Virus record (IMG/VR): IMGVR_UViG_3300032225_001048
Span: 1 to 24,493 of that record
From: a virus
Taxonomy: Duplodnaviria; Caudoviricetes
Strand: one strand, 5' to 3'
Length of the DNA stretch: 24,493 nt
Shown here: one piece after another, positions 1 through 12,835 of the stretch
How the letters are laid out: each line of letters opens with the position of its first letter
How positions within the stretch are numbered: the stretch's first letter is position 1
Program-made: the position numbers and the translations under genes
The notes under the pieces: generated by a model
Seen by the model: the letters and a program-made list of their open reading frames with translations, nothing else
Databases searched by the model: none
Told to the model about the DNA's origin: nothing

Positions 1-215
1 TGTTGGTATGTGACGGGAGTACCGTCAGGCAACTGGGGAGCCGCGCCGAAGCCGTACAGGACGGGCTCTTCGTGGTAGTTACGGGGGATACCGTCTTCCT
101 CGCGGAAAACACGTGACCATTCATCTGCGCGCTGGTCATATACGCCATCGAAACATTCGTTCAGGATTGGTTCAACAATCGAACGAAAGTCCGTACTTCT
201 CATTGGTGCGGCCAT
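1..215 (-). CDS. Major capsid protein, 5' part (truncated by window edge)
   Basis: Not in ORF track. ATG at 215 follows an AAGGAGG RBS. Reads MAAPMRSTDFRSIVEPILNECFDGVYDQRADEWSRVFREEDGIPRNYHEEPVLYGFGAAPQLPDGTPVTYQ. The pattern resembles Mu gpT-like capsid N-termini, and the position follows the scaffold/head genes. Confidence 0.8.
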   Translation of the reverse strand, partial: MAAPMRSTDFRSIVEPILNECFDGVYDQRADEWSRVFREEDGIPRNYHEEPVLYGFGAAPQLPDGTPVTYQ

Positions 216-228
216 TTTTTATGCCTCC

Positions 229-801
229 TTAGATTGCGTTGATGGTGGCAACATACTGCGACCGGCTGATTTGCACCTGCACGGTTGTATAGGCGTCACC
301 CCAAGCGTTATCCACGCCGTTGTACAGACCGATAATGCGCATATCGCCCACCGCGCTAGAACCAGCCAGCGTTGTGGAGATGGTTGCGGCAGACAGGCCG
401 GTGGTGGTGGAGCCAGCAGTGATGTTGGTGAAGTTAGCTTGATCTCCAATGGAGGTCTGGGCCAACGAGCCATCAGCTTGGATGTCGTACACGATGTTGG
501 GGTCGCTGTAGTAATAAGCTACGCACGAACCAGTCACATACGCGGTGGATGCGGGCCAGTAATTGGACACGCGGCGACGGCCGGTGGTATCAGTCCACTC
601 CACACCAGCAAACGCGCCTTGGTAGGCGCTGCCAGCGGTAGCAGCGATGATCACGCCAGAGCTGTTCAAAGCTACTGGTTGGCCTTTCAAAAGCGACGAG
701 CTGTAGCCCGAAGCAATGCCGTCAGTCAGCGCCACAGCCCGATCCAGTCCCGAAGGGTGGAAAGAAGGACGCAAACCAAACGGAGTAGAGGTTGCACTCA
801 T
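229..801 (-). CDS. Head-module protein, probable capsid decoration/cement protein (190 aa)
   Basis: Rich in Gly/Ala/Ser/Thr and likely beta-rich, with N-terminal PFGLRP and YYSDPNIVYDIQADG. Immediately upstream of the capsid gene, with an AAGGAG RBS. Confidence 0.6.
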   Translation of the reverse strand: MSATSTPFGLRPSFHPSGLDRAVALTDGIASGYSSSLLKGQPVALNSSGVIIAATAGSAYQGAFAGVEWTDTTGRRRVSNYWPASTAYVTGSCVAYYYSDPNIVYDIQADGSLAQTSIGDQANFTNITAGSTTTGLSAATISTTLAGSSAVGDMRIIGLYNGVDNAWGDAYTTVQVQISRSQYVATINAI

Positions 802-816
802 AAAATACTCCTTGAA

Positions 817-1362
817 TTAGCCGGTAAAAACCGGCGCTCGGTTGGGTTGCTGCGCAAAGTTCCCCAAACCGTCACCCTCAACGCCCACCAGCGACTTCCC
901 GCGACTGTCCCGTGCGCCCTGTAGATTTTCCACTTGAACGCGGATTTTTTCTTCCTCGTCTTGTGGCATATCGTGGTGCATGTGCGTCATGATGTCTTGG
1001 AAGACATCCATCGGCAATTTGAACAGCAACATCTCGTTGCATGAAATGAATCCAACGTGCTGTCCAGACTTCACGCGATATTCTTCGTACCCGGGTATCT
1101 CTTCAGACTTAACTGGAACGTACCCGAGTCGCATCCGTTTATCGATGGAATCGTAACTGTTGGTTGTTGAGAGCCAGCAAAGATGCCAACCGTCAAGGTC
1201 GGGCAATTTGGGCAATGCGGATTGTGTCCATTCCTCGCTCCACATACGTTTACGTTCCTGCGTGGAAATGAACTTTTCTTCAGGGGCTGCCCGGCTGCCG
1301 TCCTCGTTTGCACGAGTTTCGCGCTGACCGGTTCCTAGAGATTTCTTGAGACGTGATTCCAT
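817..1362 (-). CDS. Phage head-module hypothetical protein (181 aa)
   Basis: Tightly packed between scaffold and decoration genes. Motifs GWHLCWLST, RMRLGYVPV, NEMLLFKLP. Confidence 0.7.
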   Translation of the reverse strand: MESRLKKSLGTGQRETRANEDGSRAAPEEKFISTQERKRMWSEEWTQSALPKLPDLDGWHLCWLSTTNSYDSIDKRMRLGYVPVKSEEIPGYEEYRVKSGQHVGFISCNEMLLFKLPMDVFQDIMTHMHHDMPQDEEEKIRVQVENLQGARDSRGKSLVGVEGDGLGNFAQQPNRAPVFTG

Positions 1363-1364
1363 GA

Positions 1365-2315
1365 TTAGTTACTCCGTTGGGTGTTTCGTGCTTGCTCTGC
1401 GTATCGCTTGATCATCTTTGCGCGCTTTTCGGGGTTTTCCCACATGCCTGCATCCTTCATCGCACGCACTTGTTCAGCGGTGAGAGTGAAAGTACGGTTT
1501 GTGCCCCCGTATGCGGCTGATGCTTCGCGTCCTGAGCTTCCCACGGTATTCCTTGGAGTCCTGTTAGGTGATTCACGTCGGTCTGACGATTCATTATATC
1601 TATGGGGAAGCCGTTTCTGCAAGCGATTGTCTAATTCGTCCCAATAATCCGACGTTCCGGGGTTCCAGCCCTCTTTTACAAGGTCTTCGTCGATCAATTT
1701 GGCGATCCGGCTGTCGGTATCGGACAAATCCGGCTTGTACCAGTCGTTTCGGTCGATCCATTGGGCGGCTTGACGCTGAACACCGGGGTCAATGCGGGGT
1801 CCTTCGTTTGTTGGGCGGTCTGCCTGCTGTTTCAGGTGGTTTAACTGGTCCACCTTCTTCCGGGCCTCGTACAAAGCCTCCTGCGCGGCCACTGCGGCCT
1901 CTCCATCGCCCGAGCTGGTGGCCTCGGACAGCTTCATCCGGTGGTATTCCACCCGGACCTGCTCGTCGTCAATGGCTTTTTCCAGTCTGGCCATGTCCGC
2001 GCCCTGCGTACGGCGCTCAACTTGGGACAGCCGGTTGGCCATTTCCTCGTTTTGGCGCTGCAACATCTGCAAGCGGACGTCTTTTTCCTCATTGGTTTTG
2101 CGGATCAGGTCCTTTTTGGACCGGCGGCGGGCCCGGCGGGCGGCTCGAACGGCGTCCGAATCGTCAGGATGGTCCTCGTCACCAGCATCATCGCCGCGCG
2201 GGGTGGGCTCATCGTTGCTATCGGTGGGCAGCAGGTTCTCCGGCAGCTCAACTGTGGCTGTGCCGTCACCGCTTTCTTGTACGTACAACGGTTCTTCTTT
2301 CATTTCTGTGGCCAT
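1365..2315 (-). CDS. Probable capsid scaffolding protein (316 aa)
   Basis: Acidic N-terminus, long charged coiled-coil, short C-terminal helical cap (LTAEQVRAMKDAGMW). Lies between portal and capsid, with an AAGGAG RBS. Confidence 0.6.
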   Translation of the reverse strand: MATEMKEEPLYVQESGDGTATVELPENLLPTDSNDEPTPRGDDAGDEDHPDDSDAVRAARRARRRSKKDLIRKTNEEKDVRLQMLQRQNEEMANRLSQVERRTQGADMARLEKAIDDEQVRVEYHRMKLSEATSSGDGEAAVAAQEALYEARKKVDQLNHLKQQADRPTNEGPRIDPGVQRQAAQWIDRNDWYKPDLSDTDSRIAKLIDEDLVKEGWNPGTSDYWDELDNRLQKRLPHRYNESSDRRESPNRTPRNTVGSSGREASAAYGGTNRTFTLTAEQVRAMKDAGMWENPEKRAKMIKRYAEQARNTQRSN

Positions 2316-2324
2316 GGTATCTCC

Positions 2325-2780
2325 TTAGACGTAGGCTTTGAACGACAACGGGTTGTCGGTGACCTTGGCAATCAGCTCGTGATCGTTGATGGTCATGAAC
2401 AAGACGGGATTCAGGTCGCCGTTTTCCTCATTGGTTGCTGGCCGCTCCCAGCGGTCACCGCCCCAGCGTGGCACGCGGACATAATCCCCGATCTGGGCCC
2501 AGCTCCCCTCGGGCCACGACGCCATGGTGTCCTTGTTTTTGAACGCCAACGGTCCAATGGCCACGACCTTGCCGATCATGTTGTTCCACTTCTCGTTTTC
2601 CTTGGTTTCTTCCACCAAGATGATCTTGCCTGCGTTCTTTTTGATGCGACGTAGCTGGACAATTACTCGACCACCGTAGGGCGATTGGCCCGGATGTACA
2701 TCAGGAAATGCCCACGCCAGCTCTGCCGGTTCGGCCTCCGTCTGATCCCCGCTTACCACGGGGATTGGTTTCTCGCTCAT
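2325..2780 (-). CDS. groES: GroES/Cpn10-like co-chaperonin
   Basis: PYGGRVIVQ, GKIILVEETKE (mobile-loop equivalent), GKVVAIGP, QIGDYV, INDHELIAKV. ATG 2780 lies 5 nt after AGGAG and is preferred over the GTG at 2786. Confidence 0.85.
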   Translation of the reverse strand: MSEKPIPVVSGDQTEAEPAELAWAFPDVHPGQSPYGGRVIVQLRRIKKNAGKIILVEETKENEKWNNMIGKVVAIGPLAFKNKDTMASWPEGSWAQIGDYVRVPRWGGDRWERPATNEENGDLNPVLFMTINDHELIAKVTDNPLSFKAYV

Positions 2781-2799
2781 ACTCACTCCTAGTTACACA

Positions 2800-2856: not shown

Positions 2857-3027
2857 TTAATCTCTTTCGGCGAGTTTCGCGTTCAAGTTATCCATTACCC
2901 ACTGCAGGCCCTGATACTCGCCGACCAGTCGGACGTACGAGTCATAGTTTCCTACAGGGGTTTCCACGAGCGACTTCCGAATTTCGGATTGCCGCTCTAA
3001 AAGCATATGAAGTAGTTCTTTTATCAC
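2857..3027 (-). CDS. Small hypothetical head-module protein (56 aa)
   Basis: Below ORF-track cutoff. GTG overlaps the upstream TGA (GTGA). MIKELLHMLLERQSEIRKSLVETPVGNYDSYVRLVGEYQGLQWVMDNLNAKLAERD is a helical-hairpin type often seen between portal and GroES. Confidence 0.7.
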   Translation of the reverse strand: MIKELLHMLLERQSEIRKSLVETPVGNYDSYVRLVGEYQGLQWVMDNLNAKLAERD

Positions 3028-3188
3028 TTATTCTTCTTAGCGACGTGGCTCAGACCACCGGCCGGTTTGGCCGAAGACTTGCTGTCGCCTTTGGCTTGCA
3101 TGGACTGGCCGGTAATCGGCACGCCCATTGCCATGCGCTTGTGCTGGGGCACATTCACGCTCTTTTGTTCTGCATCACTGTTGGCCAT
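3024..3188 (-). CDS. Small basic hypothetical protein (54 aa)
   Basis: AAGGAG RBS. MANSDAEQKSVNVPQHKRMAMGVPITGQSMQAKGDSKSSAKPAGGLSHVAKKNK; overlaps the portal 3' end. Confidence 0.65.
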   Translation of the reverse strand: MANSDAEQKSVNVPQHKRMAMGVPITGQSMQAKGDSKSSAKPAGGLSHVAKKNK

Positions 3189-5637
3189 TTAATACTCCTT
3201 CGGGTGCAGCCGGGGCTGCGGGTTGCGCGACGGGTGCCGCAGGTTGAGCCATCTGTTGGATAGTCTCGTGGGTTAATTTGGCGTTCTCGATGGCGACCTT
3301 GGTGTCGTTGTCCATTTTGTGCTTGGCGATGTCCGCTTGCATCTGCTGGACATCGATCTGCACGTCCTGCTGGTCGCGGGCGGCCTTGCGCTGGGTTTCG
3401 GCCATGGCAGTGTCCTTGACGACCTGCGCGTCGGGCGGAAGCTGCGGTGGAGGCATGCTCTGCTGCAGCATCTGCTGGAGCTGCTGGATCTGCGGCAGGA
3501 TCTGCGCAAACACCTGCTGACTGTCCATGGCCACGTGCTGGCCAACGGTGGCGTAGAGCTGGTCAATGATGCCGGTCAGGTGCGGATTGTCGTAGTCGGT
3601 CACCGGCCTGCCACCACGCAAGTTGGACACGTAGCCGTTCATGCGGTTTAAGTACCACAGGGTCATGTGCTGCTTGATGTGCTCGATGCAGTTGGGCAGG
3701 AATTGCGGGGCGATGAATGGGTTTGCACCAAATGCCGGGTCCATGCCAAACATCAGGTGGCCTTGGATGTGCGCCAGATGGTCCTGCTGCATGTAAGCAT
3801 AGGACGGCTTGCCAATGGACATGGCGGCATTCTCGTCGGCCAACGTGCGCTGCTCGGGCGCTGGCACGTCCTTCATCAGCTCGGAGATGTTCGGGATCTT
3901 GATCTGCTTGAGGAAACGCTCTTCCACGGCTTTGGCGTCGTACAGCTCGGGGTGGGCATCCGCCCGTTGCAGCACCGCCTGCATCTGGGCCATGCGCTGG
4001 GTTTCGCTGAAGATGTGCGGGTCGGATACCGGGATGACGTCGGTGTTGCGCTCAAAATCCTCGCGTTCAATTTCCAGATCTTGAACGATCTCGCCCTTGC
4101 GCATCTCATCAAAATGCCAGCGGTTCAAGCGGCACAGAACCTTGATCAGGCGTGCTTGCGACTGGTGCAGCCGGGCGTGGATGGCCGAGTAGACCGCAGC
4201 ACCCTGCTCTATCAATGCTTGCGTGGTGCCCACAGGGGCGTTGCTGGTCACGTCAGCGATCTTTTCTTCGCTGGTGGTCACTACCCCCTTGGCGGCGTTA
4301 TCCAGCCAGCCCAGCAGCTCAAAGAGCACCGGCGACGGCGCGTTGAACGGCATGGGCATGGCAATCTTGCGGATGTCGTCCACGCCGGGCGCGCCTTCGA
4401 TCTCGGCAACCTGCGTCACCTCGATCTGCTGGGTCTGGCCGCTGATCTTCGCGCCCTTGAGCTTCAGCATGGTCGCGGCGTTGTTGATGTGCGCCGAGTC
4501 CAACAGCGCGCGCAGGGCACCGGTCAGGGCTGCGGAGAGCCCGCCAATCAGGTGCGGCAGGCCAATGGCATACGCGCCGCGCCACGGGATGAACTTGAAC
4601 TCAATGATCCAATCGAGCTTGGTCATCGTCTCGTCGCCCTCTTCCCAGTTGCGGTACAGGCCGATGACCTCGGAGCTTTGCTCGTCCACCATCATGATGT
4701 ACGGGGCCATTTCGCCCTTGGAGAACTTGTCGTCTTCAAACTCCAAAAATGCGTAGATGTGGTAGACCTTGCGCAGGCCGTCATCATTGTCTTGGAACTG
4801 CTTGCCCTCGATCTTGTCGTTGGCCTTTTGCGGGCGGCTCTGCTCGGGCTCTTGGCCGCTGGTCAGGTTGGAGCCGCCGACGTACATGCCGTTGGCCACG
4901 CGCCGGTTGTATTCCCACTCGGTGATCTCGTGGACCTCGGCCGCACGTTGGGCGGTGTAGAAGTTGGTGGCCGCAAAGGGCAGGATCACCCGGTCAATGG
5001 GCAGGAACTCCACCGTGGGGCGCTTCTTCTGCTCGTCATACCAGAGCTTCAGGAACTGCGATCCGCCCAGTGGTAGCTGGGTCAGCATCTGCTCTTGCTC
5101 GTCGCGGAACTCTTCAATCTGCTCAGTGATCTGCCAGTTGAGGAAGTCGCGCTTGCGCTCGGCGCGCTGGGTCTTCAAATCGTCAACTTGACCAATGATC
5201 TTGGTGCGGACCGGGCCGTCCGGTGGAAACAGCTCCTTGATGGCGCGGGATGCAAAGTCCACGCAGCCCTCGGCCATGACCGGATGCACCACCTTGGATG
5301 CGCCGTAGAAGTTGGCCCCGCCGGGTGCGTCCTTACCCAACCCGGTGCGCTTCATGCCCTCTTCGTACTGCTTGTCGCGCTCCTCGCGGGCGTTTTTGTC
5401 CTTGTCCAGCAGGTTGACGTAGCGCATGCCCAAGCTGTTCAGGTCGTAGCTGTCCATGGTCTCAACCATGTTGGAGTAGAAATCAGGCGACTCCTCCGGG
5501 CCGGACGTCTCCATGCTGACTACAGCAGAGCCGTCGGGCATCTCCACAACGTCGGATATGTCGTCGGGCAGCTCAACGTCCGCCGATCCGTCTTCGTTCA
5601 GCTCGGGGTCGTTTAGATCGTCTTGTTCTGCCATCAT
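3175..5637 (-). CDS. Portal protein (820 aa)
   Basis: Size and position fit. Motifs VVHPVMAEGCVDFASRAIKELFPPDGPV, LPLGGSQFLK, FKFIPWRGAYAIGLPHLIG, APVGTTQALIEQG. The Gln-rich C-terminal coil resembles P22-like portals. Confidence 0.85.
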   Translation of the reverse strand: MMAEQDDLNDPELNEDGSADVELPDDISDVVEMPDGSAVVSMETSGPEESPDFYSNMVETMDSYDLNSLGMRYVNLLDKDKNAREERDKQYEEGMKRTGLGKDAPGGANFYGASKVVHPVMAEGCVDFASRAIKELFPPDGPVRTKIIGQVDDLKTQRAERKRDFLNWQITEQIEEFRDEQEQMLTQLPLGGSQFLKLWYDEQKKRPTVEFLPIDRVILPFAATNFYTAQRAAEVHEITEWEYNRRVANGMYVGGSNLTSGQEPEQSRPQKANDKIEGKQFQDNDDGLRKVYHIYAFLEFEDDKFSKGEMAPYIMMVDEQSSEVIGLYRNWEEGDETMTKLDWIIEFKFIPWRGAYAIGLPHLIGGLSAALTGALRALLDSAHINNAATMLKLKGAKISGQTQQIEVTQVAEIEGAPGVDDIRKIAMPMPFNAPSPVLFELLGWLDNAAKGVVTTSEEKIADVTSNAPVGTTQALIEQGAAVYSAIHARLHQSQARLIKVLCRLNRWHFDEMRKGEIVQDLEIEREDFERNTDVIPVSDPHIFSETQRMAQMQAVLQRADAHPELYDAKAVEERFLKQIKIPNISELMKDVPAPEQRTLADENAAMSIGKPSYAYMQQDHLAHIQGHLMFGMDPAFGANPFIAPQFLPNCIEHIKQHMTLWYLNRMNGYVSNLRGGRPVTDYDNPHLTGIIDQLYATVGQHVAMDSQQVFAQILPQIQQLQQMLQQSMPPPQLPPDAQVVKDTAMAETQRKAARDQQDVQIDVQQMQADIAKHKMDNDTKVAIENAKLTHETIQQMAQPAAPVAQPAAPAAPEGVLNGQQ

Positions 5638-8411
5638 TTAACCTTTTTGGAATAGTGCTTCACGCTCTCCAACTCGTACCGCATAGCATCGAGGTTTGGT
5701 GAAACGGTGATTTTCTCTTTAGTGTAGCCCACGGGCTTGATGCTGCCGCCCTTGGCTTTGGTGATGTCGGGATCATTGGGGTTATACGTTCCACGATTGC
5801 CAATGGCAGACTTGATCATGCGGGGATCAAATACCGCATGCGTAATTCTTCCTGATTCTTTTGCGGTAATGCCGTCATACCCGCGCTTCATTGCGGCTTC
5901 AATAAATTCTGGGCTGTTCACCACATGGTATGGCTCCATTTCATCAGAATAAATTGAAGTATCAACCCCTAACCGTTTTGCGGTTTTGAGCGCGTCATCT
6001 AAGTGGCCGTTCAAGTCAAATCCCAAACGCAATGGTTTTTTTATATTGATGTGTACCGGCATCACGTAGCCGTTTTTTCCGGCATAAGTATTTGTTGTGT
6101 ATGGTTCTTTTGCTACCCAATTAGCAAGATTGGTAAATTGTTTAATGGCCGCGCCACTATCTTCTTCATAATCATCATGACTTTGCGTGCCGTGGTACAT
6201 CCGGCCTTTGACTTTGCTTTCGGACAGGAACTTGGCAAGATTGGCGTCGTGCTCTGCGCGTGACACTTTTCCGCCCTTCGCTTTACCCTGCGACGCCAGC
6301 CACTGCGCAAAGGTCGGCATCTGGTTGGTATACACGTTCTTCATGGCCTCGTCGTACGCCTTGTTCAGCGCGGACTGCTGGGCCATCTGCTCACGCAGGG
6401 CAGTAAGCTGTGGGCTCAATGGGCGCAGGGGCGGCACGGGTCCGCCTGTAGCGTAGTTCTCGCGCTTGCCGTAGGTGGGTTTATGCGCCAGCACCAGCGG
6501 GCCAATCTGAACTACGTGGGCGGAATGGGTGACCGGCTTCATGGTCTTGCGGTCGTAGAAAAACCCATGCCTGCGCGGGTCAAATCCAACCTGCGCATAG
6601 TCCGGGTCGTTCAAGTGGGTCTTCATGTGCTCCACCGCTTCGTCCTCAGACATGTGGTGCAGATCGCCCTTGATGCGGGCAAAAGATGACTTGCCCTTCT
6701 CCCCCATCCCAACTTCTTCGGCCTTGTGCGGGGTGGGATCGAACACGGCATTCTTTACCGACGACACGGGACCGTACGCAACTTTCAGATTGTCATCGCC
6801 CTTGCCCTCTTCGTCGTGAACCGAATTGACCCATACGCCGTGGGTCTCGTAGGCCGGGATATCCAAGCGCAACCCGACCTTGCGGCCCGCTGGCCACTGC
6901 TCGTGGCCGCGCCACTTTGGCTTTTGCGCGGGCTTCAGCGCACGCTCTGCGTCCTCGTCCGTCGCAGGCTGCGGCACGAACTCGTAGGGCTTGATGGGCT
7001 TGTGCTTGGCAATTAGCTTGTCGAGCTGCTTGTGCGTCGTAGTGCCCGCAGCGATGCCGCGTATGGCCGCTTCCAGCTCCGGGTGCTTGCGTTGCAGGTT
7101 AGGGTCGTAGTTAGTTGGCTTGACCTCAACCTCGCCGCCTTTGGCGTACAGCGGCACGCCGTTCTTGGTCACGTCCTCGCGCATGGCTGGGGTGATGGGA
7201 AATATGTGGACCGGAGCCATTTTGGGTGGTTGCTTGGCAGAATACTCGGCCATCATCTGTTGCGTCTGGGGGTAGGACAGTTGACCCCAGTTTTGTTCTG
7301 GTATGCCACTTGCCCGCAGCATTTCGGTCTGACTATGGCCGTTGGGGTCGTCAATGTTGACCTGCCCCTGCCCGACCTTTGCGCCGTACTTCTTGCCAAA
7401 CTGGTTCAGGAAGTTGGGCACGATTTTGTCGTAGAAGCCCTTCATGCCTTCACCACCGACCTTGATGTCGTCGCCTTCAAGGTAATGAAAACCGCCTTGT
7501 CTGGGCGAAGCCATTAACTTTTGCGCCAACTCTTTACCCACCAGTTGAGACACGCGTTCAGGTGTTGCCCCGTGCTCGTGCATAGCCGTTTCTCTGTTTG
7601 GTTTGAACGCAGCAAAATGTTGTCGTTCTGGGTCATACGACAACACGCCAATACGCTGGGCCAGCCCATACCGATCCGCTTGCTCTTGCCCCGGCGTAAT
7701 GGCGATGGCATCGTAGCCATTCTTGGCGGCGTGGTGGATCATCTTCTTGAGCGCCATCTCGTGCCAGTTTTTTTTGAACGGGGCATCGGGCACTTTGCCC
7801 GTTAATTTGCCCAACGCAGCAAGCCTATTTGCATAATTCTCGCTGTACGTATCAGGCTCAATGCTGCCGTCTGACCATTTAATTCCATACTCATCTTCAT
7901 CAACTTTGTAGGGCTCGCCTGTCAATTTTTTTGGTTGCCCCGCAGGCCGATAACCATGCTCACGCCCCTGTTGATGCCAATCAGATTGCAGCTCTTCAAT
8001 GTGCAGAATTTTTTCGCCGTTGGGCCCGGTACGGTCTTTGGCTCGGACGCTGGCCAGTATGTTGGGAGCGCCGCCAAAATGTTGTGGCACACCGGGAAAT
8101 CTTTCTGCTGATTTAGGATGCTGCAACAATATTTCACGGTAGTTGCTTCCACCCGGCAGTGTGTAACTTTCATGATGTTCTTCTTGAGTATGGCGAGCCG
8201 TAGGCACCACGGGCGGCTTACTTTTCAGCGCCTCCATGAACTGCGCCCGCTCCATCTTAGGCATGTTCACCAGCGCCTGCAGCCCACGGTCCTCAGCTTC
8301 CTGCGCCTTGTAGCCGGGCATCTTGCTCAACTCGGTCATGAACTCCGCGCCGGTCCCCTTTGGACGGGGCAGGGTCTGGGCCAGCCGGTCGATGGGAGAG
8401 TAGAAACTCAC
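5634..8411 (-). CDS. Large modular (polyvalent-type) protein: EELQSDW/GNAT-like domain, RLDIPAY domain, ART-PolyVal-like ADP-ribosyltransferase domain (925 aa)
   Basis: C-terminal SKV..MYHGT...VMPVHINIKKPL...GYDGI...VFDPRMIKSAIGNRGTY is typical of ART-PolyVal. Modules are separated by YAKGG, YATGG, KAKGG and KAKGG. 4-nt overlaps with both neighbours. Confidence 0.75.
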   Translation of the reverse strand: MSFYSPIDRLAQTLPRPKGTGAEFMTELSKMPGYKAQEAEDRGLQALVNMPKMERAQFMEALKSKPPVVPTARHTQEEHHESYTLPGGSNYREILLQHPKSAERFPGVPQHFGGAPNILASVRAKDRTGPNGEKILHIEELQSDWHQQGREHGYRPAGQPKKLTGEPYKVDEDEYGIKWSDGSIEPDTYSENYANRLAALGKLTGKVPDAPFKKNWHEMALKKMIHHAAKNGYDAIAITPGQEQADRYGLAQRIGVLSYDPERQHFAAFKPNRETAMHEHGATPERVSQLVGKELAQKLMASPRQGGFHYLEGDDIKVGGEGMKGFYDKIVPNFLNQFGKKYGAKVGQGQVNIDDPNGHSQTEMLRASGIPEQNWGQLSYPQTQQMMAEYSAKQPPKMAPVHIFPITPAMREDVTKNGVPLYAKGGEVEVKPTNYDPNLQRKHPELEAAIRGIAAGTTTHKQLDKLIAKHKPIKPYEFVPQPATDEDAERALKPAQKPKWRGHEQWPAGRKVGLRLDIPAYETHGVWVNSVHDEEGKGDDNLKVAYGPVSSVKNAVFDPTPHKAEEVGMGEKGKSSFARIKGDLHHMSEDEAVEHMKTHLNDPDYAQVGFDPRRHGFFYDRKTMKPVTHSAHVVQIGPLVLAHKPTYGKRENYATGGPVPPLRPLSPQLTALREQMAQQSALNKAYDEAMKNVYTNQMPTFAQWLASQGKAKGGKVSRAEHDANLAKFLSESKVKGRMYHGTQSHDDYEEDSGAAIKQFTNLANWVAKEPYTTNTYAGKNGYVMPVHINIKKPLRLGFDLNGHLDDALKTAKRLGVDTSIYSDEMEPYHVVNSPEFIEAAMKRGYDGITAKESGRITHAVFDPRMIKSAIGNRGTYNPNDPDITKAKGGSIKPVGYTKEKITVSPNLDAMRYELESVKHYSKKVK

Positions 8412-9751
8412 AGCTTGCGCTCCGTCAGTTGGATGTCATGGGTCGATCCACCGCGCTTCATGCTCAGGTCGTCCTTGGTCGTGTCGTAGGTCCCACGGTT
8501 GCCGATTGCGCTCTTGATCATGCGGGGATTGAAATGCACGACCTCGGTCAGTTTGCCGTCGCGGTACTGCATGATGGCGTCGTGACCAGCAGCTTGCGCC
8601 CGGGTTTTCACCTGATTGCCAATACCGCCTCTTTCATCGTAAGCCTTCTCCACAATCTTGTTGGCTTTGTCCCGGTCAACACCGAGCTGCGTCAGCGCAA
8701 GGATCATGGGATCTTCGGCACCCTTGGAATGCAGCACGAGCGGGTTCAGGATGCGGGCGTGGACCGGGAGCATATTGCCGCCCCGCTGCGATGGCAAGAC
8801 ATTGCCAGAGTCTCGCTGCCTCAATGCCTTGAGCCCGACGTCATGGTGGTGCTCGTTTGCCAGCATGGACAGGATTGCATCGTCGTTCGGAATGCCGCTG
8901 TAGCCGCTTGCATGGGATGCGTCAGGGGTCAGGTATACCCCAGCACCTAATGCGCCTTCCTTGCTAGGTTTAAAGCGGCGGATAGCCTCATTGCCTTTGC
9001 CGCCCTCGGTCGCAGTCGTACCGTGGTACAGGCGCATGGGCGTGTGGCTACCCTCAAGAAACTTTCCCAACGCTTTCCGCATATCCTCCACCGGGACTGG
9101 TCCGCCTCCGGCCATCTTTGGCATGGTCGGCCCGGGGCGTTGCGGCATCGCCTGTGGGTTCGGCCGCATGGCCTGCATGGCTTGGCCTTGGGGCGTCAGG
9201 GCAAGGATGTTGCTCTGCGGCTGGCCGGGCCGTGGTGGTGGAGCTCCGGGCGCTCCGGGTGGCGGCATGCCAGCTTGGGGCGGCTGGCCGGGTGACTGTC
9301 CGGGCGGCAGTCCACCTTGCGGCTGGCCGGGCTGCATGGGCATCAACTGGTTGCCCGGCGTCAGGGGCTGGAAGTCCACACCACCAATGGGCAGGCCAGC
9401 ACCGTTACCGCCGTTGGGCGACACGAACGCTTTGATGGGCAGGTCGGGTGCCTCATTGACGCCAACGTCCTTGATGTTCATCAAGTTGGGTGCCTTGCGC
9501 AGCATCAGGCTGGCCAGCATGGTGTCCTTATCGGGCTCTACGCTGCCGCCGTCGGCCATCTTGCGGGTGGGTTTGCGGGCAACATGCTTGACCGGGGTCC
9601 ATTCTTCGCGCTCTTCCGGGTCGTGGCGGTGGGCCAATTGGAACTGAGCCGCAAAGCTCATCTCGGGATTGGACATGTACTCGTCGAACTGGCTCTCGCG
9701 GTGGCTCGGGTGCAGGACGCCGGAGTGACCGACAGCGCCACCAGCGGCCAT
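5739..9751 (-). repeat. Eight dispersed [YMK]-[AK]-x-G-G-x-[VIT] peptide repeats
   Basis: KAKGGSI 5739-5759, KAKGGKV 6264-6284, YATGGPV 6435-6455, YAKGGEV 7128-7148, MKRGGST 8441-8461, MAGGGPV 9095-9115, MADGGSV 9539-9559, MAAGGAV 9731-9751. Confidence 0.8.
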
Positions 9752-11389
9752 GAACTTGATGGGCTGGGGTGCGGCGTACTCTTTGCCCGCGCTGGCTTCC
9801 TGTGCGTGCGGAGGATCAATCTCGTACTCGCCGTTGTTGCTTTTGGCGTGTTCGATGTGGCCTTGGTTCACGTGGTGGGTGAACGCTGACTGGTGCTGGA
9901 CAGTGCTCGTGGACGTGGTCGGCGTGGTCATCAGCAGGTGGCCAGCCTCTTTGCCGTTCTTGGTCTTGAACCGGTCCTTGGGCAGGAATTCCTCGTCCTT
10001 GAAACGGGAGTCGGTCGGGATCATGTGCTCGACGCTCTCCATCTTGCCGGTCGATTTGTTCTTCTTGCGCTCTGGGACGTTGACCAACCGAGGGTGCAGG
10101 ATGTGCTGCTTCTGGTAGTCGTAGCGCTGATCGTTCAGCGTGGTGTGGCCAAAGTGCGCCTTGTCGGGCGTTGTGGGCTTGCCAGTGGGTCCAAAGTGGC
10201 CAGATGGGCCCTCGGCCTTCTCTTCCTCGGAAAGCTCACTCACGGGCCTTCCAGTGGACCAGTACTTGGCATGGGTGATGTTTTTTTCCATGTTTTTGGC
10301 CAGCGGGGAGCCGCGCTTGACGTCGGTCACCATGTACGAACCCTTGGGCGGCGTCTTGTGGCCTTCGTCGTTCACTAGGTCATCACCCTTGGCGGTCGTG
10401 GCCGTTATGGTGGAGCGGACGCGCTGCTTGTCCCGGGCAATGTTCTCGGCCACCGAAGCGCCCTGCTTGGTCTTTGGCCCGACGTTGGAGTAGGTGACGT
10501 GGTAGCCGTTCTCCGGGTCGTGCATCTCGTTGGTCTTGCCGTACGAGTTTGCGGTGATGGGCGGCTTGCCTTCTTCGGCACGCTGCTTGTTCAGGCCCCG
10601 GATGACATGGCGGGATGACACGTCGGTCTCGTCCACTACATTGGGACGGAACAACAGGCGCATGTTTTTCTTGTCAGCTTTTTCGGCAGCCTCACGCATA
10701 GAGCCGGTGTGGGCTAGTATCCAGTCCTTGGTCATAGCCGGGTCGTGCTTGGCTTGCTCGTGGCATGCCCGGCGCACGGCAGCGTTGACGTACTGGGACT
10801 CGGCATTGGGCGCAAAGCATGTGCCCCGCATAGTGTCCACCACGCCGCTCTTATCAACCCCACCGCCGCAACCCTCGGTCTGGCCCGCGCAAGTGTTGAG
10901 CACGTGGCGCATCTCGTTCGTGCCATGGCCAGATGTGTACAGGGCATGGCCAGCGATACCCTTGGACGCAAAGCCTTCGTAGCCCCGACCCTTCTCGTCG
11001 TGCTCGTGGCGGACGGTGTCGAGCTTCTCGCTCTTGTCCAGAGTGTTGGCGGTTTTGCCAATGTGCTTGGCCATACGCAGCTTTTGCAGGGCGTCTTGTT
11101 CCGCGCCGATCTGCTCGTGCAGTGGCTTGTCAAAGTGCTCTTCTAGGGTTTCTTTGTGGAGGCGGCCCATCTGGCCAACGGTCAATGGGGGGCGATTCTC
11201 AGATCCGTAAACTGACGCACGGGCGTCGTTGATCTTGTTCATGCCCTCTGCGTGCTGGGTTCCTTCCAACATGTGCCGGGGAACTACGATGCCCTTGACG
11301 CCGCCAAAGCCCTTTGCGTTGACCAGAACTCGAGTGGGCTGCTTTTTCTGCGCCACTTCGGCGCGCATCTGTTCTACGGTTGGTGCCAC
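8408..11389 (-). CDS. Large modular protein: GP88-like Cys-triad domain, Pro/Gln/Gly-rich region, ART-PolyVal-like ADP-ribosyltransferase domain (993 aa)
   Basis: GTG start after GGAGG. C-terminal LYHGT...GALGAGVYLT...MLPVHARILNPL...GHDAI...EVVHFNPRMIKSAIGNRGTY. N-terminal NTCAGQTEGC...CFA. Linkers MAAGG, MADGG, MAGGG and MKRGG. Confidence 0.75.
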   Translation of the reverse strand: MAPTVEQMRAEVAQKKQPTRVLVNAKGFGGVKGIVVPRHMLEGTQHAEGMNKINDARASVYGSENRPPLTVGQMGRLHKETLEEHFDKPLHEQIGAEQDALQKLRMAKHIGKTANTLDKSEKLDTVRHEHDEKGRGYEGFASKGIAGHALYTSGHGTNEMRHVLNTCAGQTEGCGGGVDKSGVVDTMRGTCFAPNAESQYVNAAVRRACHEQAKHDPAMTKDWILAHTGSMREAAEKADKKNMRLLFRPNVVDETDVSSRHVIRGLNKQRAEEGKPPITANSYGKTNEMHDPENGYHVTYSNVGPKTKQGASVAENIARDKQRVRSTITATTAKGDDLVNDEGHKTPPKGSYMVTDVKRGSPLAKNMEKNITHAKYWSTGRPVSELSEEEKAEGPSGHFGPTGKPTTPDKAHFGHTTLNDQRYDYQKQHILHPRLVNVPERKKNKSTGKMESVEHMIPTDSRFKDEEFLPKDRFKTKNGKEAGHLLMTTPTTSTSTVQHQSAFTHHVNQGHIEHAKSNNGEYEIDPPHAQEASAGKEYAAPQPIKFMAAGGAVGHSGVLHPSHRESQFDEYMSNPEMSFAAQFQLAHRHDPEEREEWTPVKHVARKPTRKMADGGSVEPDKDTMLASLMLRKAPNLMNIKDVGVNEAPDLPIKAFVSPNGGNGAGLPIGGVDFQPLTPGNQLMPMQPGQPQGGLPPGQSPGQPPQAGMPPPGAPGAPPPRPGQPQSNILALTPQGQAMQAMRPNPQAMPQRPGPTMPKMAGGGPVPVEDMRKALGKFLEGSHTPMRLYHGTTATEGGKGNEAIRRFKPSKEGALGAGVYLTPDASHASGYSGIPNDDAILSMLANEHHHDVGLKALRQRDSGNVLPSQRGGNMLPVHARILNPLVLHSKGAEDPMILALTQLGVDRDKANKIVEKAYDERGGIGNQVKTRAQAAGHDAIMQYRDGKLTEVVHFNPRMIKSAIGNRGTYDTTKDDLSMKRGGSTHDIQLTERKL

Positions 11390-11419: not shown

Positions 11420-12835
11420 CTACGCGGCATAAGGATTTTCCCTGTTACGGTGACCAGCGTCAATGTAGTCGTCCTCGTCCACCCATTCCCGTGGGAAGTC
11501 GATGGTCAGCCACCCGGCATCACGCAGGTAGCGCAGGGCTTGGCTCATGGCGTCCACAAAGTCGTCATGGGCGGTATCCGGGAAGCTGCAGACCTGACTG
11601 ACCATGCCCTCGGCCCAGTCTCGCACAAACCCTTTGCGCTTGCTGGACTCGGGTATCCACACCCTGCCCGCCTTGATGATGTTGGAGACGATGCTCAGGC
11701 GCTGGATCTTGTCGGCCTTGCCCGGGTTCCACGGGATCACCGGCAGGCCAGCCCGGCGCAGGTCTTGGATCAAGCTGATACCGGCGCTCTTGTCCTCGAT
11801 CAGCAGGACGTCCACGCGCTTCTTTTCCCGGCCGTCGCCGTAGACTGTCTCATACTCGTCCACGATCCGGGGCCGCAGGTCGGGATACTGCAGCCGGTCC
11901 TGCCAGCAGTCGATCACCATCACGCACATGCCGCCATCAGTGGGCTTGAAAACCCCAAAGGTTATGTGAGCGGTCGGATCGTTCTGCGTCTTCTCGCTGG
12001 TTGCCACGTCCATGGACTGCACGATGTACTCAAACTTGGGAAACTCCCGGCCATCAGGCCACAGGCGGAACCAGTCGCGCTTGACGATGCCGCCTTCCTC
12101 GGGGTCAATGATCTCCGCATGGATCTCCTGCCGCCCGAGGTTCGTGCCCTCATAGCTCAGGATCTGCTTTTTGAACGACGGCGCAAGGTTGTCGATGTTG
12201 CTGTACGTGCTGGCCCGGGTTATCACCACGTCGTCGCCTTCACGGGCGATCAGGTCCATCACAACATCTTTTGGTTTTGGCGTGGTGGAGCAGATCAACC
12301 GGGTGTGCTTGCCCAGCCGGATGCCGAACTGGATCATGTCCCAGCTTTCCTGCAGGTACTCCCAAGCGGCCAGCTCGTCCAGCCAGCCACCGTGAAACTG
12401 CGGACCCCTGAACCTTTCGGGCTCGGACGCCGGGATGCCCTTGATGAGCGAGCCATTGATCAGGACAAGCTCATGCAAAGATTTGTTGTAGTCCTTGATC
12501 AAATCCGGCGGAATGACGGACATCAGGCCGGAGTCGCCCTCAAAGCAGGTTGCCCGCAGGTCGCTCGATGTCGGCGCGGATACCAGCCACCGGGTGCCGG
12601 GCTGCTCCCATGCCCACCATGCTAGGTTCTCTGCGGCCGACCGGGTCTTACCGGCTCCACGGCCTGCGCACATCAGCCAGACGGACCACCAATCGCCTAC
12701 GGGCTCAATTTGGTGCCGGTGGGCGGTCATGATCCACTTGGCCCGCCATGCGAACGCAATGCGATGGCTTTGCGGTAGCTGTGCGAACTGATCCCGGAGC
12801 TTGGGGTCGCGCAGGATGTCAGCTAGGTTGCCCAT
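11420..12835 (-). CDS. terL: Terminase large subunit (471 aa)
   Basis: Walker A AGRGAGKT, RFRGPQ, Walker B WLDELA, coupling motif TTP, RNase H-like nuclease SMDVA...IEDKSAG...FPDTAHDDFVDAMSQ. Confidence 0.95.
   Translation of the reverse strand: MGNLADILRDPKLRDQFAQLPQSHRIAFAWRAKWIMTAHRHQIEPVGDWWSVWLMCAGRGAGKTRSAAENLAWWAWEQPGTRWLVSAPTSSDLRATCFEGDSGLMSVIPPDLIKDYNKSLHELVLINGSLIKGIPASEPERFRGPQFHGGWLDELAAWEYLQESWDMIQFGIRLGKHTRLICSTTPKPKDVVMDLIAREGDDVVITRASTYSNIDNLAPSFKKQILSYEGTNLGRQEIHAEIIDPEEGGIVKRDWFRLWPDGREFPKFEYIVQSMDVATSEKTQNDPTAHITFGVFKPTDGGMCVMVIDCWQDRLQYPDLRPRIVDEYETVYGDGREKKRVDVLLIEDKSAGISLIQDLRRAGLPVIPWNPGKADKIQRLSIVSNIIKAGRVWIPESSKRKGFVRDWAEGMVSQVCSFPDTAHDDFVDAMSQALRYLRDAGWLTIDFPREWVDEDDYIDAGHRNRENPYAA

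Follow-up and report, generated by a model that had tools for sequence, protein, structure and literature searches.

A seven-residue motif, [YMK]-[AK]-x-G-G-x-[VIT], punctuates two polyproteins encoded between the terminase large subunit (terL) and portal genes of an uncultured HTVC023P-type podovirus. In our leading reading, to which we give a probability of roughly 45%, this motif would be a signal marking virion cargo, recognised by a small domain of the first ejection-type protein, probably with cutting at that point and separate injection of the modules. Several observations point to such a signal: the polyproteins are encoded among late genes, the motif stands at module ends and modules are exchanged there, it recurs both flanking the small domain and on a filler-type basic protein, and motif system and domain co-occur. 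How podoviruses choose the cargo of their heads and how large multidomain cargo passes through a narrow tail are largely open questions; both become testable once a signal of seven residues and a candidate for its reader can be named, and the borders of modules can be predicted in hundreds of proteins that lack annotation; if the tag proved portable it would provide a means of loading chosen proteins into phage heads.

The terL-portal slot and its two polyproteins

The window, that is the whole stretch of 24,493 nucleotides analysed, represents 43% of a genome. As the first-pass annotation had proposed, two tandem genes, A and B, fill the 5783-nt gap between the end of terL (11420) and the start of the portal gene (5637); both open reading frames were recovered, with a GTGA overlap shared by A and B and an ATGA overlap shared by B and the portal gene. 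HTVC023P-type pelagiphages and their kin (HTVC027P, DSL-LC04, Caulobacter RW, Roseobacter CRP-901) have the head order of the window (terL, portal, GroES, scaffold-like, two small genes, capsid) and portal homology to it of 30-69%, but differ in the content of the slot, which ranges from none (RW, CRP-901) up to 1-3 polyproteins. Our slot set comprises 111 distinct terL-portal slot proteins, the window's two included; the occurrence of single modules is given for 57 loci.

11420..12835, minus strand: terminase large subunit, motif-free (context)
8408..11389, minus strand: putative cargo polyprotein A, 993 aa (GP88-like module, 64-aa spacer, Pro/Gln-rich module, ART-PolyVal module, 12-aa tail)
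9737..11389, minus strand: module A-1, GP88-like, weak Pfam match at residues 156-251
9731..9751, minus strand: motif copy A1, MAAGGAV, residues 547-553
9539..9559, minus strand: motif copy A2, MADGGSV, residues 611-617, then a DxMxxxL helix-type motif
9101..9544, minus strand: module A-3, Pro/Gln-rich, the slot's most constant module (52/57 loci)
9095..9115, minus strand: motif copy A3, MAGGGPV, residues 759-765, then a DxMxxxL-like helix-type motif
8447..9100, minus strand: module A-4, ADP-ribosyltransferase of polyvalent proteins (PF18760), 43.6 bits
8441..8461, minus strand: motif copy A4, MKRGGST, residues 977-983; the tail behind it overlaps a GGAG ribosome-binding site of gene B
5634..8411, minus strand: putative cargo polyprotein B, 925 aa (N-terminal module with no assigned family, 231-aa module, 57-aa segment, ART-PolyVal module, 36-aa tail)
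7134..8411, minus strand: module B-1, in 39/57 loci
7128..7148, minus strand: motif copy B1, YAKGGEV, residues 422-428
6441..7133, minus strand: module B-2, no family assigned, in 22/57 loci
6435..6455, minus strand: motif copy B2, YATGGPV, residues 653-659
6264..6284, minus strand: motif copy B3, KAKGGKV, residues 710-716
5745..6269, minus strand: module B-4, ADP-ribosyltransferase of polyvalent proteins (PF18760), 54.7 bits
5739..5759, minus strand: motif copy B4, KAKGGSI, residues 885-891, then the tail with a DxMxxEL helix-type motif
3175..5637, minus strand: portal protein, motif-free (context)
229..2786, minus strand: head genes downstream, all motif-free, namely the next four
2325-2786, minus strand: GroES-like gene
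1365-2315, minus strand: scaffold-like gene
817-1362, minus strand: gene of a conserved 181-aa protein
229-801, minus strand: gene of a 190-aa protein
1..215, minus strand: beginning of the gene for the major capsid protein, truncated where the window ends

Both ART domains (residues 867-967 of A and 738-875 of B) score above the Pfam ART-PolyVal cut-off of 31.2 bits and have a motif on either side, as first described. The GP88-like label of A corresponds to an existing Pfam match, but one under the cut-off (E 3e-4); this module stands first in 9 slot proteins and internally in 12. A GNAT-like identity for the N-terminal module of B was not recovered by Pfam or PDB search, phrog_7348 being its sole family match. 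In the slots of relatives, Pfam searches with 39 module representatives gave LPD23, PcfJ, ASCH, GNAT and GDSL modules, and a 499-aa slot protein with HDxxxH, absent from the window, occurs in 14 of the 57 loci.

The phage-type polyvalent proteins are large multidomain proteins of portal-terminase phages with shuffled conflict domains, including ART-PolyVal, which Iyer et al. 2017 (PMC5512222) regard as packaged and partly processed. A and B resemble them in joining unrelated conflict domains in one chain, in their shuffled architectures, in having ART-PolyVal above the cut-off and in being encoded by a portal-terminase phage, adjoining head genes. Neither has a Pfam match to MuF or a zincin metallopeptidase, an anchor that is common but not universal among such proteins. 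The window group also has a fixed short motif at module borders, 'glycine' giving no match in the accessible text of PMC5512222.

The earlier observation that no protease is recognisable in the window agrees with our scan of nine window proteins, which gave no protease family. Adenovirus AVP and ASFV pS273R are Gly-Gly-specific viral maturation proteases, and these enzymes, as well as the T4 and phiKZ prohead proteases with their internal proteins, act within immature particles on precursors and basic core proteins that carry repeats of a short site. The window polyproteins share with AVP/ASFV-type processed polyproteins a site that recurs at the borders of domains, but the analogy drawn with these proteases found no enzyme to match: no AVP/ASFV-like, T4- or phiKZ-type homologue was detected among the nine window proteins or 38 proteins of the near-complete relative G002, and the suggested peptidase search, run by Pfam on the same 38 proteins of the relative, gave no classical prohead protease and only an M15 endolysin-type peptidase. 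The 181-aa head protein matched only unnamed clusters in the ESM Atlas.

Distribution of the motif among relatives

All eight copies reported for A and B, four in each, were found, compared with means of 0.031 and 0.030 copies per protein in shuffled A and B and four or more in none of 5000 shuffles; the pattern was chosen after viewing A and B, relatives being a fairer test than these window shuffles. The motif has no copy in the eight other window genes tested, and a motif profile trained on slot proteins (window copies included) retrieves exactly these eight sites across the six frames of the window.

In the 111 slot proteins we observed 338 copies where 15.9 were expected (maximum of 23 in 100 shuffles), and 100 of these proteins bear the motif, which is thus conserved in homologues. 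Its location at module boundaries, proposed from the two window proteins, is seen in 251 of the 255 copies of 11 recurrent module clusters, which end in the motif. The slot proteins display 75 architectures from 35 module clusters, and 42 of 60 ends of internal homology lie within 20 aa of a motif, compared with 14-18% of positions, which upholds the suggestion that modules are exchanged there. Identical modules are found both at native N-termini and directly after a motif, often sharing a DxMxxEL helix start, and 118 of 175 DxMxxEL-type helices stand after a motif or at a protein start (11% expected). The motif is conserved as a peptide, its synonymous codons being as variable as background, so we rejected the idea that a DNA microhomology is what is conserved. 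We also rejected internal initiation of translation at copies that begin with Met, as no Shine-Dalgarno sequence lies upstream and just 23% of copies begin in this way.

In five near-complete relatives (G001-G005) the motif is nearly confined to head and ejection-region proteins, with only scattered single matches elsewhere. Besides the slot proteins, its carriers are a basic low-complexity protein with 8-10 copies and a net charge of +28 to +44, the first ejection-type protein and some small basic proteins. It is absent from the capsid, portal and scaffold-like proteins, except for one weak match in one scaffold. The motif first noticed in A and B is not special to them: it is shared with the basic protein, the ejection-type protein, tape measure proteins such as lambda gpH, and crAss gp45. 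Our literature search found no paper on virion proteins of the HTVC023P-type group and no description of the motif, with the limits that a degenerate motif cannot be text-matched and that subscription papers are poorly covered.

A candidate reader domain and its counterparts in other phages

The first ejection-type protein of G001-G005 ends in a small, motif-flagged domain with a core of only about 45-60 aa, the pattern G-x-G-x-G-x-S-D-x-I-x-A-x-L-x-x-G-E-[YF]-V, an invariant Glu and a near-invariant Asp. The ejection region lies outside the window, and we infer the presence of the domain in the source phage from its relatives. Among the 12 phages with this type of head that we examined, nine have it, six of the nine being close kin, and the three that do not (CRP-901, QDWS535, MW202796) all lack the motif system and have terL adjoining portal. 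In HTVC103P, the domain ends gp79, which is located between the portal gene and the scaffold-like and capsid genes; prohead proteases are usually located between portal and capsid genes. Across unrelated phage types and host phyla the motif co-occurs with the domain: 61 of 77 loci have a copy no more than 65 aa upstream, and among 64 tape measure proteins 49 have the motif before the domain and 39 after it.

The domain profile matches the tape measure proteins of Douge, JBD30 and lambda (E 5e-36, 6e-15 and 2e-11, respectively); the alignment behind the lambda match (A6) included one lambda row, and a lambda-free profile (A3) matched Douge and JBD30, but gpH only weakly. By these comparisons the small domain matches the lambda gpH-type C-terminal tape-measure module, flanking motif included. 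Two structure models of the domain (pLDDT 60.7 and 74.3) gave no protease or clear fold match, using Foldseek against the PDB for both and VIA-align, helices only, for the first, and a BFVD search returned uncharacterised homologues only; with models of such modest confidence, these null searches are no evidence on the fold.

Lambda gpH carries a motif-domain-motif unit, with FATGG at 733-737, the domain at about 738-770 including GEFVF, and YATGG at 778-782. According to PMC12617516, gpH is cleaved near this region, and neither site nor catalyst is known. A cut after FATGG would give 80.1 and 12.2 kDa, compared with the fragments of about 78 and 14 kDa in that paper, sizes that fit a Gly-rich stretch at 707-721 better. 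Because the unit sits where gpH is cut, this 50-year-old question becomes addressable in lambda. Siphophage tape measure proteins have the motif once or twice in cis, whereas in the podovirus group it stands in trans on separate head-cargo proteins.

The same motif surrounds the two distant pieces of gp45 in crAss001 (PDB 7QOG; PMC10172136), a protein proven to be virion cargo and bearing at least 7 motif copies: the resolved pieces, 214-245 in the tail and 425-552 at the portal, are 420 A apart and each lies between copies. The cryo-EM model begins at Ala425 of an AFGG copy and continues into the portal-bound domain, so that in mature virions the chain apparently remains joined behind the GG of this copy. 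As in the window group, the motif punctuates crassvirus cargo protein 1 (crAss_CARG1, PF25725) and brackets its portal-bound domain, as 18 of 30 homologues have AxGG where the domain starts and 26 of 30 have it 126-147 aa downstream, and GG is invariant across 29 aligned homologues. Of the crAss001 cargo proteins examined, gp45 alone has the motif; gp46, gp47, gp49 and the examined part of gp50 are motif-free cargo, which counts against the cargo-signal reading. PMC10172136 treats gp45 as one uncut chain, whereas we model the window group as probably cut. P23-45 gp96, which we left out of this comparison, is reported as full length in virions (PMC10770324). Homology between the gp45 domain and the small domain is at most a weak lead from sequence: their profile link was rejected as not significant (no PF25725 match at E <= 1 in five records searched; hhalign 1.7% and 1.4%). 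Among the structure matches listed for the modest-confidence models of the small domain, 7QOG did not appear.

Possible functions of the motif

According to the cargo-signal reading, the polyproteins would be made late and taken into the prohead, where the small domain, probably an oligomer at the portal, would bind the motif in trans and its invariant Glu and near-invariant Asp would catalyse a cut at or next to GG. Pieces of 6-60 kDa would then precede the DNA through portal and tail and affect the host by ADP-ribosylation and other activities. In a wider and distinctly tentative version the small domain would stand for a protease family not recognised so far, oligomeric maturation enzymes of the acid (Glu/Asp) kind that cut [YFMK]-A-x-G-G-x-V: in cis in siphophages (trimming gpH to gpH*), in crassviruses by splitting gp45 into a tail and a portal piece, and in trans in an abundant freshwater podovirus group, where it would pack and release swappable anti-host enzymes. 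Six of 82 copies leave C-terminal tails of at most 8 aa, some standing 5-6 aa from the C-terminus, and in nine cases copies are only 8 aa apart; this counts against cutting, because cutting there separates nothing useful, and agrees with a close rival that we consider doubtful yet possible, in which the motif is a non-cutting docking tag. It would bind the small domain or complete its fold, tethering cargo to the ejection-type protein and portal so that it is packaged and pulled out full length, with many copies providing avidity. One cryo-EM model favours this rival, as it keeps the gp45 copy ordered and attached to the portal-bound domain, and so do the 8-10 copies on one disordered basic protein, a reader domain that is small and matches no peptidase, and the published account of JBD30, in which the same region (gp46) was modelled as a 'hook' and no peptidase motif was found (PMC11445458). 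Docking leaves unexplained, however, that nearly every module, and not merely every protein, ends in the motif, that internal modules restart with the helix of native N-termini, and that the Glu/Asp pair is kept invariant or nearly so from lambda to these phages, and it has to accommodate the known gpH cut in this neighbourhood (PMC12617516).

All the boundary evidence for cutting would equally suit cleavage by another phage protein, such as the conserved 181-aa head protein (817-1362), which has no assigned function, or by a host protease, with the small domain, which has no protease fold match, as one more substrate module. We consider this improbable, as a homologue of the 181-aa gene is found in RW, which has no cargo cassette, motif-free CRP-901 has a gene of similar size and position, and a host enzyme does not predict that motif and small domain go together in phages of unrelated types whose hosts belong to different phyla. 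It also seems quite unlikely that the motif serves only as a flexible linker, or marks a joint where module shuffling has recombined the genes, in proteins that act late in the cytoplasm and are not packaged: it is Gly-rich and homology breaks cluster at it, but its conservation is at the peptide and not the DNA level, with a fixed Ala and Val/Ile, and it occurs at C-termini with nothing to link, on single-domain basic proteins and on the proven virion proteins gp45 and gpH.

Motif-punctuated proteins between terminase and portal

The window covers 43% of the virus record and carries its two large proteins between terL and the portal gene, in the following arrangement.

11420-12835, minus strand: terL, upstream of the slot genes
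8408-11389, minus strand: gene of the 993-aa protein, next after terL
5634-8411, minus strand: gene of the 925-aa protein, next after the 993-aa gene
3175-5637, minus strand: portal gene, next after the 925-aa gene
3024-3188, minus strand: small ORF, 54 aa, under the 60-aa listing limit
2857-3027, minus strand: small ORF, 56 aa, under the same limit

The 993-aa, 925-aa and portal genes are coupled via four-base overlaps. The first-pass annotation had described tandem proteins punctuated by [YMK]-[AK]-x-G-G-x-[VIT], and this observation is real: the sequence check recovered four copies in each large protein at the positions claimed, shuffled versions hold 0.03 copies each (four being reached in 0/5000), and the eight other window genes scanned contain none. 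Both ART-PolyVal domains score above the cut-off and are indeed flanked by two copies; the GP88-like label corresponds to a match, yet one below the cut-off, and the GNAT label of the 925-aa protein was not recovered in family and structure searches. Of the features that excerpts of PMC5512222 set out for phage polyvalent proteins, both proteins show those that can be tested, and by sequence they are a form of candidate packaged polyvalent cargo.

The tail encoded at window 8408-8446 (minus strand), ending TERKL/EERPL, recurs in many relatives and may be conserved at the RNA level, since the same sequence provides the following gene with its GGAG ribosome-binding site. The two small ORFs, also conserved, lie between the portal and a GroES-like gene (2857-3188, minus strand). 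A head-region gene of 181 aa (817-1362, minus strand) is highly conserved (81-87% among the five near-complete relatives G001-G005), and Pfam, PHROGs and ESM Atlas assign its product to no family.

The motif in related phages

Portal relatives number 18 among 50,697 phage records, including HTVC023P, HTVC027P, DSL-LC04, Caulobacter RW and CRP-901. The slot between terL and portal was surveyed in the best 80 of 580 IMG/VR portal relatives, 67 of which extend to terL, giving, window included, 133 proteins of at least 400 aa (111 distinct). The motif is kept in these homologues, with 338 copies of a slightly relaxed pattern in the 111 distinct proteins versus 15.9 expected; 100 of the 111 have at least one copy, the last lying within 45 aa of the C-terminus in 80 of the 100, and 10 of the 11 motif-free proteins fall in a single 497-530-aa family. 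The logo reads [YKMLF]-A(89%)-[KED]-G-G-x-[V 68%, I 13%]; the residues on either side are little conserved, and the codons vary like background codons, which argues that selection acts on the peptide. The 497-530-aa protein, which carries HDxxxH, is the first slot gene (L085:8272-9771 in relative G002 and 13 other loci); ten distinct versions have no GG motif and four have it 5-6 aa from the C-terminus.

Split at the motif, slot proteins yield 449 segments, of which 309 exceed 60 aa and form 35 clusters (13 with at least three members) and 75 architectures, single-linkage clustering having merged some unrelated modules into the ART cluster. As proposed earlier, the motif marks module borders: it closes 251 of 255 members of 11 recurrent clusters, whose modules start at a native N-terminus or directly behind a motif, and 42 of 60 internal alignment ends between window proteins and relatives, which come from related sequences and are hence not 60 independent events, fall within 20 aa of it, where 14-18% of positions lie. 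A second short motif, [DE]xM[RLKQ]xx[LIVM], stands behind 110 of the 338 copies; it occurs 175 times in all, 118 of them behind a GG motif or at the start of a protein. Pfam names few of 39 module representatives (ART-PolyVal, GP88 (weak), ASCH, PcfJ, LPD23, GDSL, GNAT).

A motif-profile scan of the G001-G005 genomes matched slot proteins, yet the motif is not confined to the two-protein type: a low-complexity basic protein, small basic proteins and the first ejection-type protein, encoded after a gp10-like stabilisation gene, match too. One scaffold-like protein has one match and a few single matches occur elsewhere; portal, capsid and terminase have none. Pfam recovered no head protease when 38 proteins of G002 were scanned. 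The low-complexity protein, encoded behind the capsid genes in G001-G005 and MW202545, has 337-464 aa, 8-10 copies and a net charge of +28 to +44. This basic multi-copy protein (L086:2520-3533 in G002; homologues in G001, G003-G005 and at L083:18808-20157) has a second, GG-ended repeat just ahead of many motif copies, and looks like an internal DNA-neutralising filler. The head genes of G002 are 70-85% identical to those of G004, G005 and MW202545 while the replication modules differ, indicating that head and replication modules are exchanged; the PolA/SNF2-type module of G002 (L084:10470-16301) has no homologues in these three.

A candidate reader domain

The window ends short of the ejection-type gene, and the candidate reader was seen in relatives, where this small domain (consensus GxGxGxSDxIxAxLxxGE[YF]V) ends the ejection-type protein. 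Across 115 aligned sequences the Glu alone is invariant and the Ser-Asp and glycines nearly so, a conservation partly built in by gathering patterns that include these residues. A motif lies at most 65 aa upstream in 61/77 loci. Tape measure proteins commonly carry the domain; of the 64 pattern-readable prophage loci (of 120), 49 have a motif upstream of it and 39 have one downstream.

Of 12 phages that share the window's head type (HTVC027P and DSL-LC04 being covered in part), nine showed the domain (G001-G005, MW202545, RW, HTVC027P and DSL-LC04); it was not found in CRP-901, QDWS535 and MW202796, which have no motif system and whose portal gene directly adjoins terL. In RW the motif flanks the small domain only, and the slot holds a tRNA. 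In the slot, the motif occurs on proteins without the small domain; such domain-free carriers, and the matching presence or absence of motif system and domain, are what is distinctive here. No description of the motif, its use in trans on head cargo or the candidate reader was found in the literature searched, which is weak evidence of absence.

HTVC103P gp79 (L149:6136-7431), acidic and with several motif copies, bears the domain at its C-terminus and is encoded with the portal gene on one side and scaffold-like and capsid genes on the other. HTVC103P gp59 (L149:23497-25584), of ejection type, opens with a short basic stretch and then GG, which hints at a leader that may be removed. The domain is duplicated in tandem in MW202545 (L099:20074-21993), G004 and G005, the second copy without Ser-Asp.

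Solved virions and the role of the motif

The nearest named ESM Atlas cluster for the candidate reader is crAss_CARG1, a weak match (0.85). In crAss001, gp45 (L145:30988-33516) has at least seven motif copies and was resolved by cryo-EM as portal-bound and tail pieces (PMC10172136, in excerpt); the portal-bound piece (425-552) runs from the Ala of one copy to a point short of the following copy, and two further copies flank the tail piece (214-245). The main text of that paper does not mention cleav-, proteoly- or protease. The motif stands at the start of the gp45 domain in 18 and downstream of it in 26 of 30 crass-like homologues. This domain has no established sequence homology to the candidate reader, the alignment being limited to a G-E-x-V register. 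By eye, the small basic segments between gp45 copies look like small basic genes that stand alone in HTVC027P; gp45 may be a polyprotein.

In PDB, the domain profile, whose alignment includes one lambda row, hits the proteins of Douge and JBD30 as well as lambda gpH (727-799); a lambda-free profile reached gpH at E 0.04 only. About 14 kDa is removed from the Gly-rich C-terminal region of gpH, the cut site and catalyst being given as unknown in excerpts of PMC12617516. A computed cut behind FATGG gives 80.1 + 12.2 kDa; placing it in the Gly-rich stretch that immediately precedes this site yields 77.7-78.5 + 13.8-14.6 kDa, a closer fit to the published sizes. For JBD30, the authors predict a 'hook' at the domain region and found no peptidase motif there (PMC11445458, in excerpt); the portions consulted of the Douge (PMC13033339) and phi14:2 (10.1101/2020.03.07.982082) accounts hold nothing on the motif.

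The distribution of the motif suggests a signal on proteins carried inside the particle that would be read by the small domain, a reading to which we give a probability of about three in four. That the domain would also cut at the motif after reading it, close to the protease site of the first-pass annotation, is a tentative proposal at somewhat less than even odds. Modules closed by the motif, internal modules that restart like native N-termini, the conserved acidic pair of the domain, a domain-bearing gene able to occupy the protease slot and the nearby cut of gpH all speak for cutting; against it stand the very small size of the domain, two models of it whose fold comparisons gave neither protease nor other fold, the motif copy still attached in the gp45 model and copies that precede tails of few residues. 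A docking tag without any cut comes next, as a close rival that is somewhat less probable. Cutting by a different protease would likewise account for closed modules, and is unlikely. A mere linker would suit the position at module borders and is slightly less probable again, given a motif selected as peptide and found near the C-terminus of most slot proteins.
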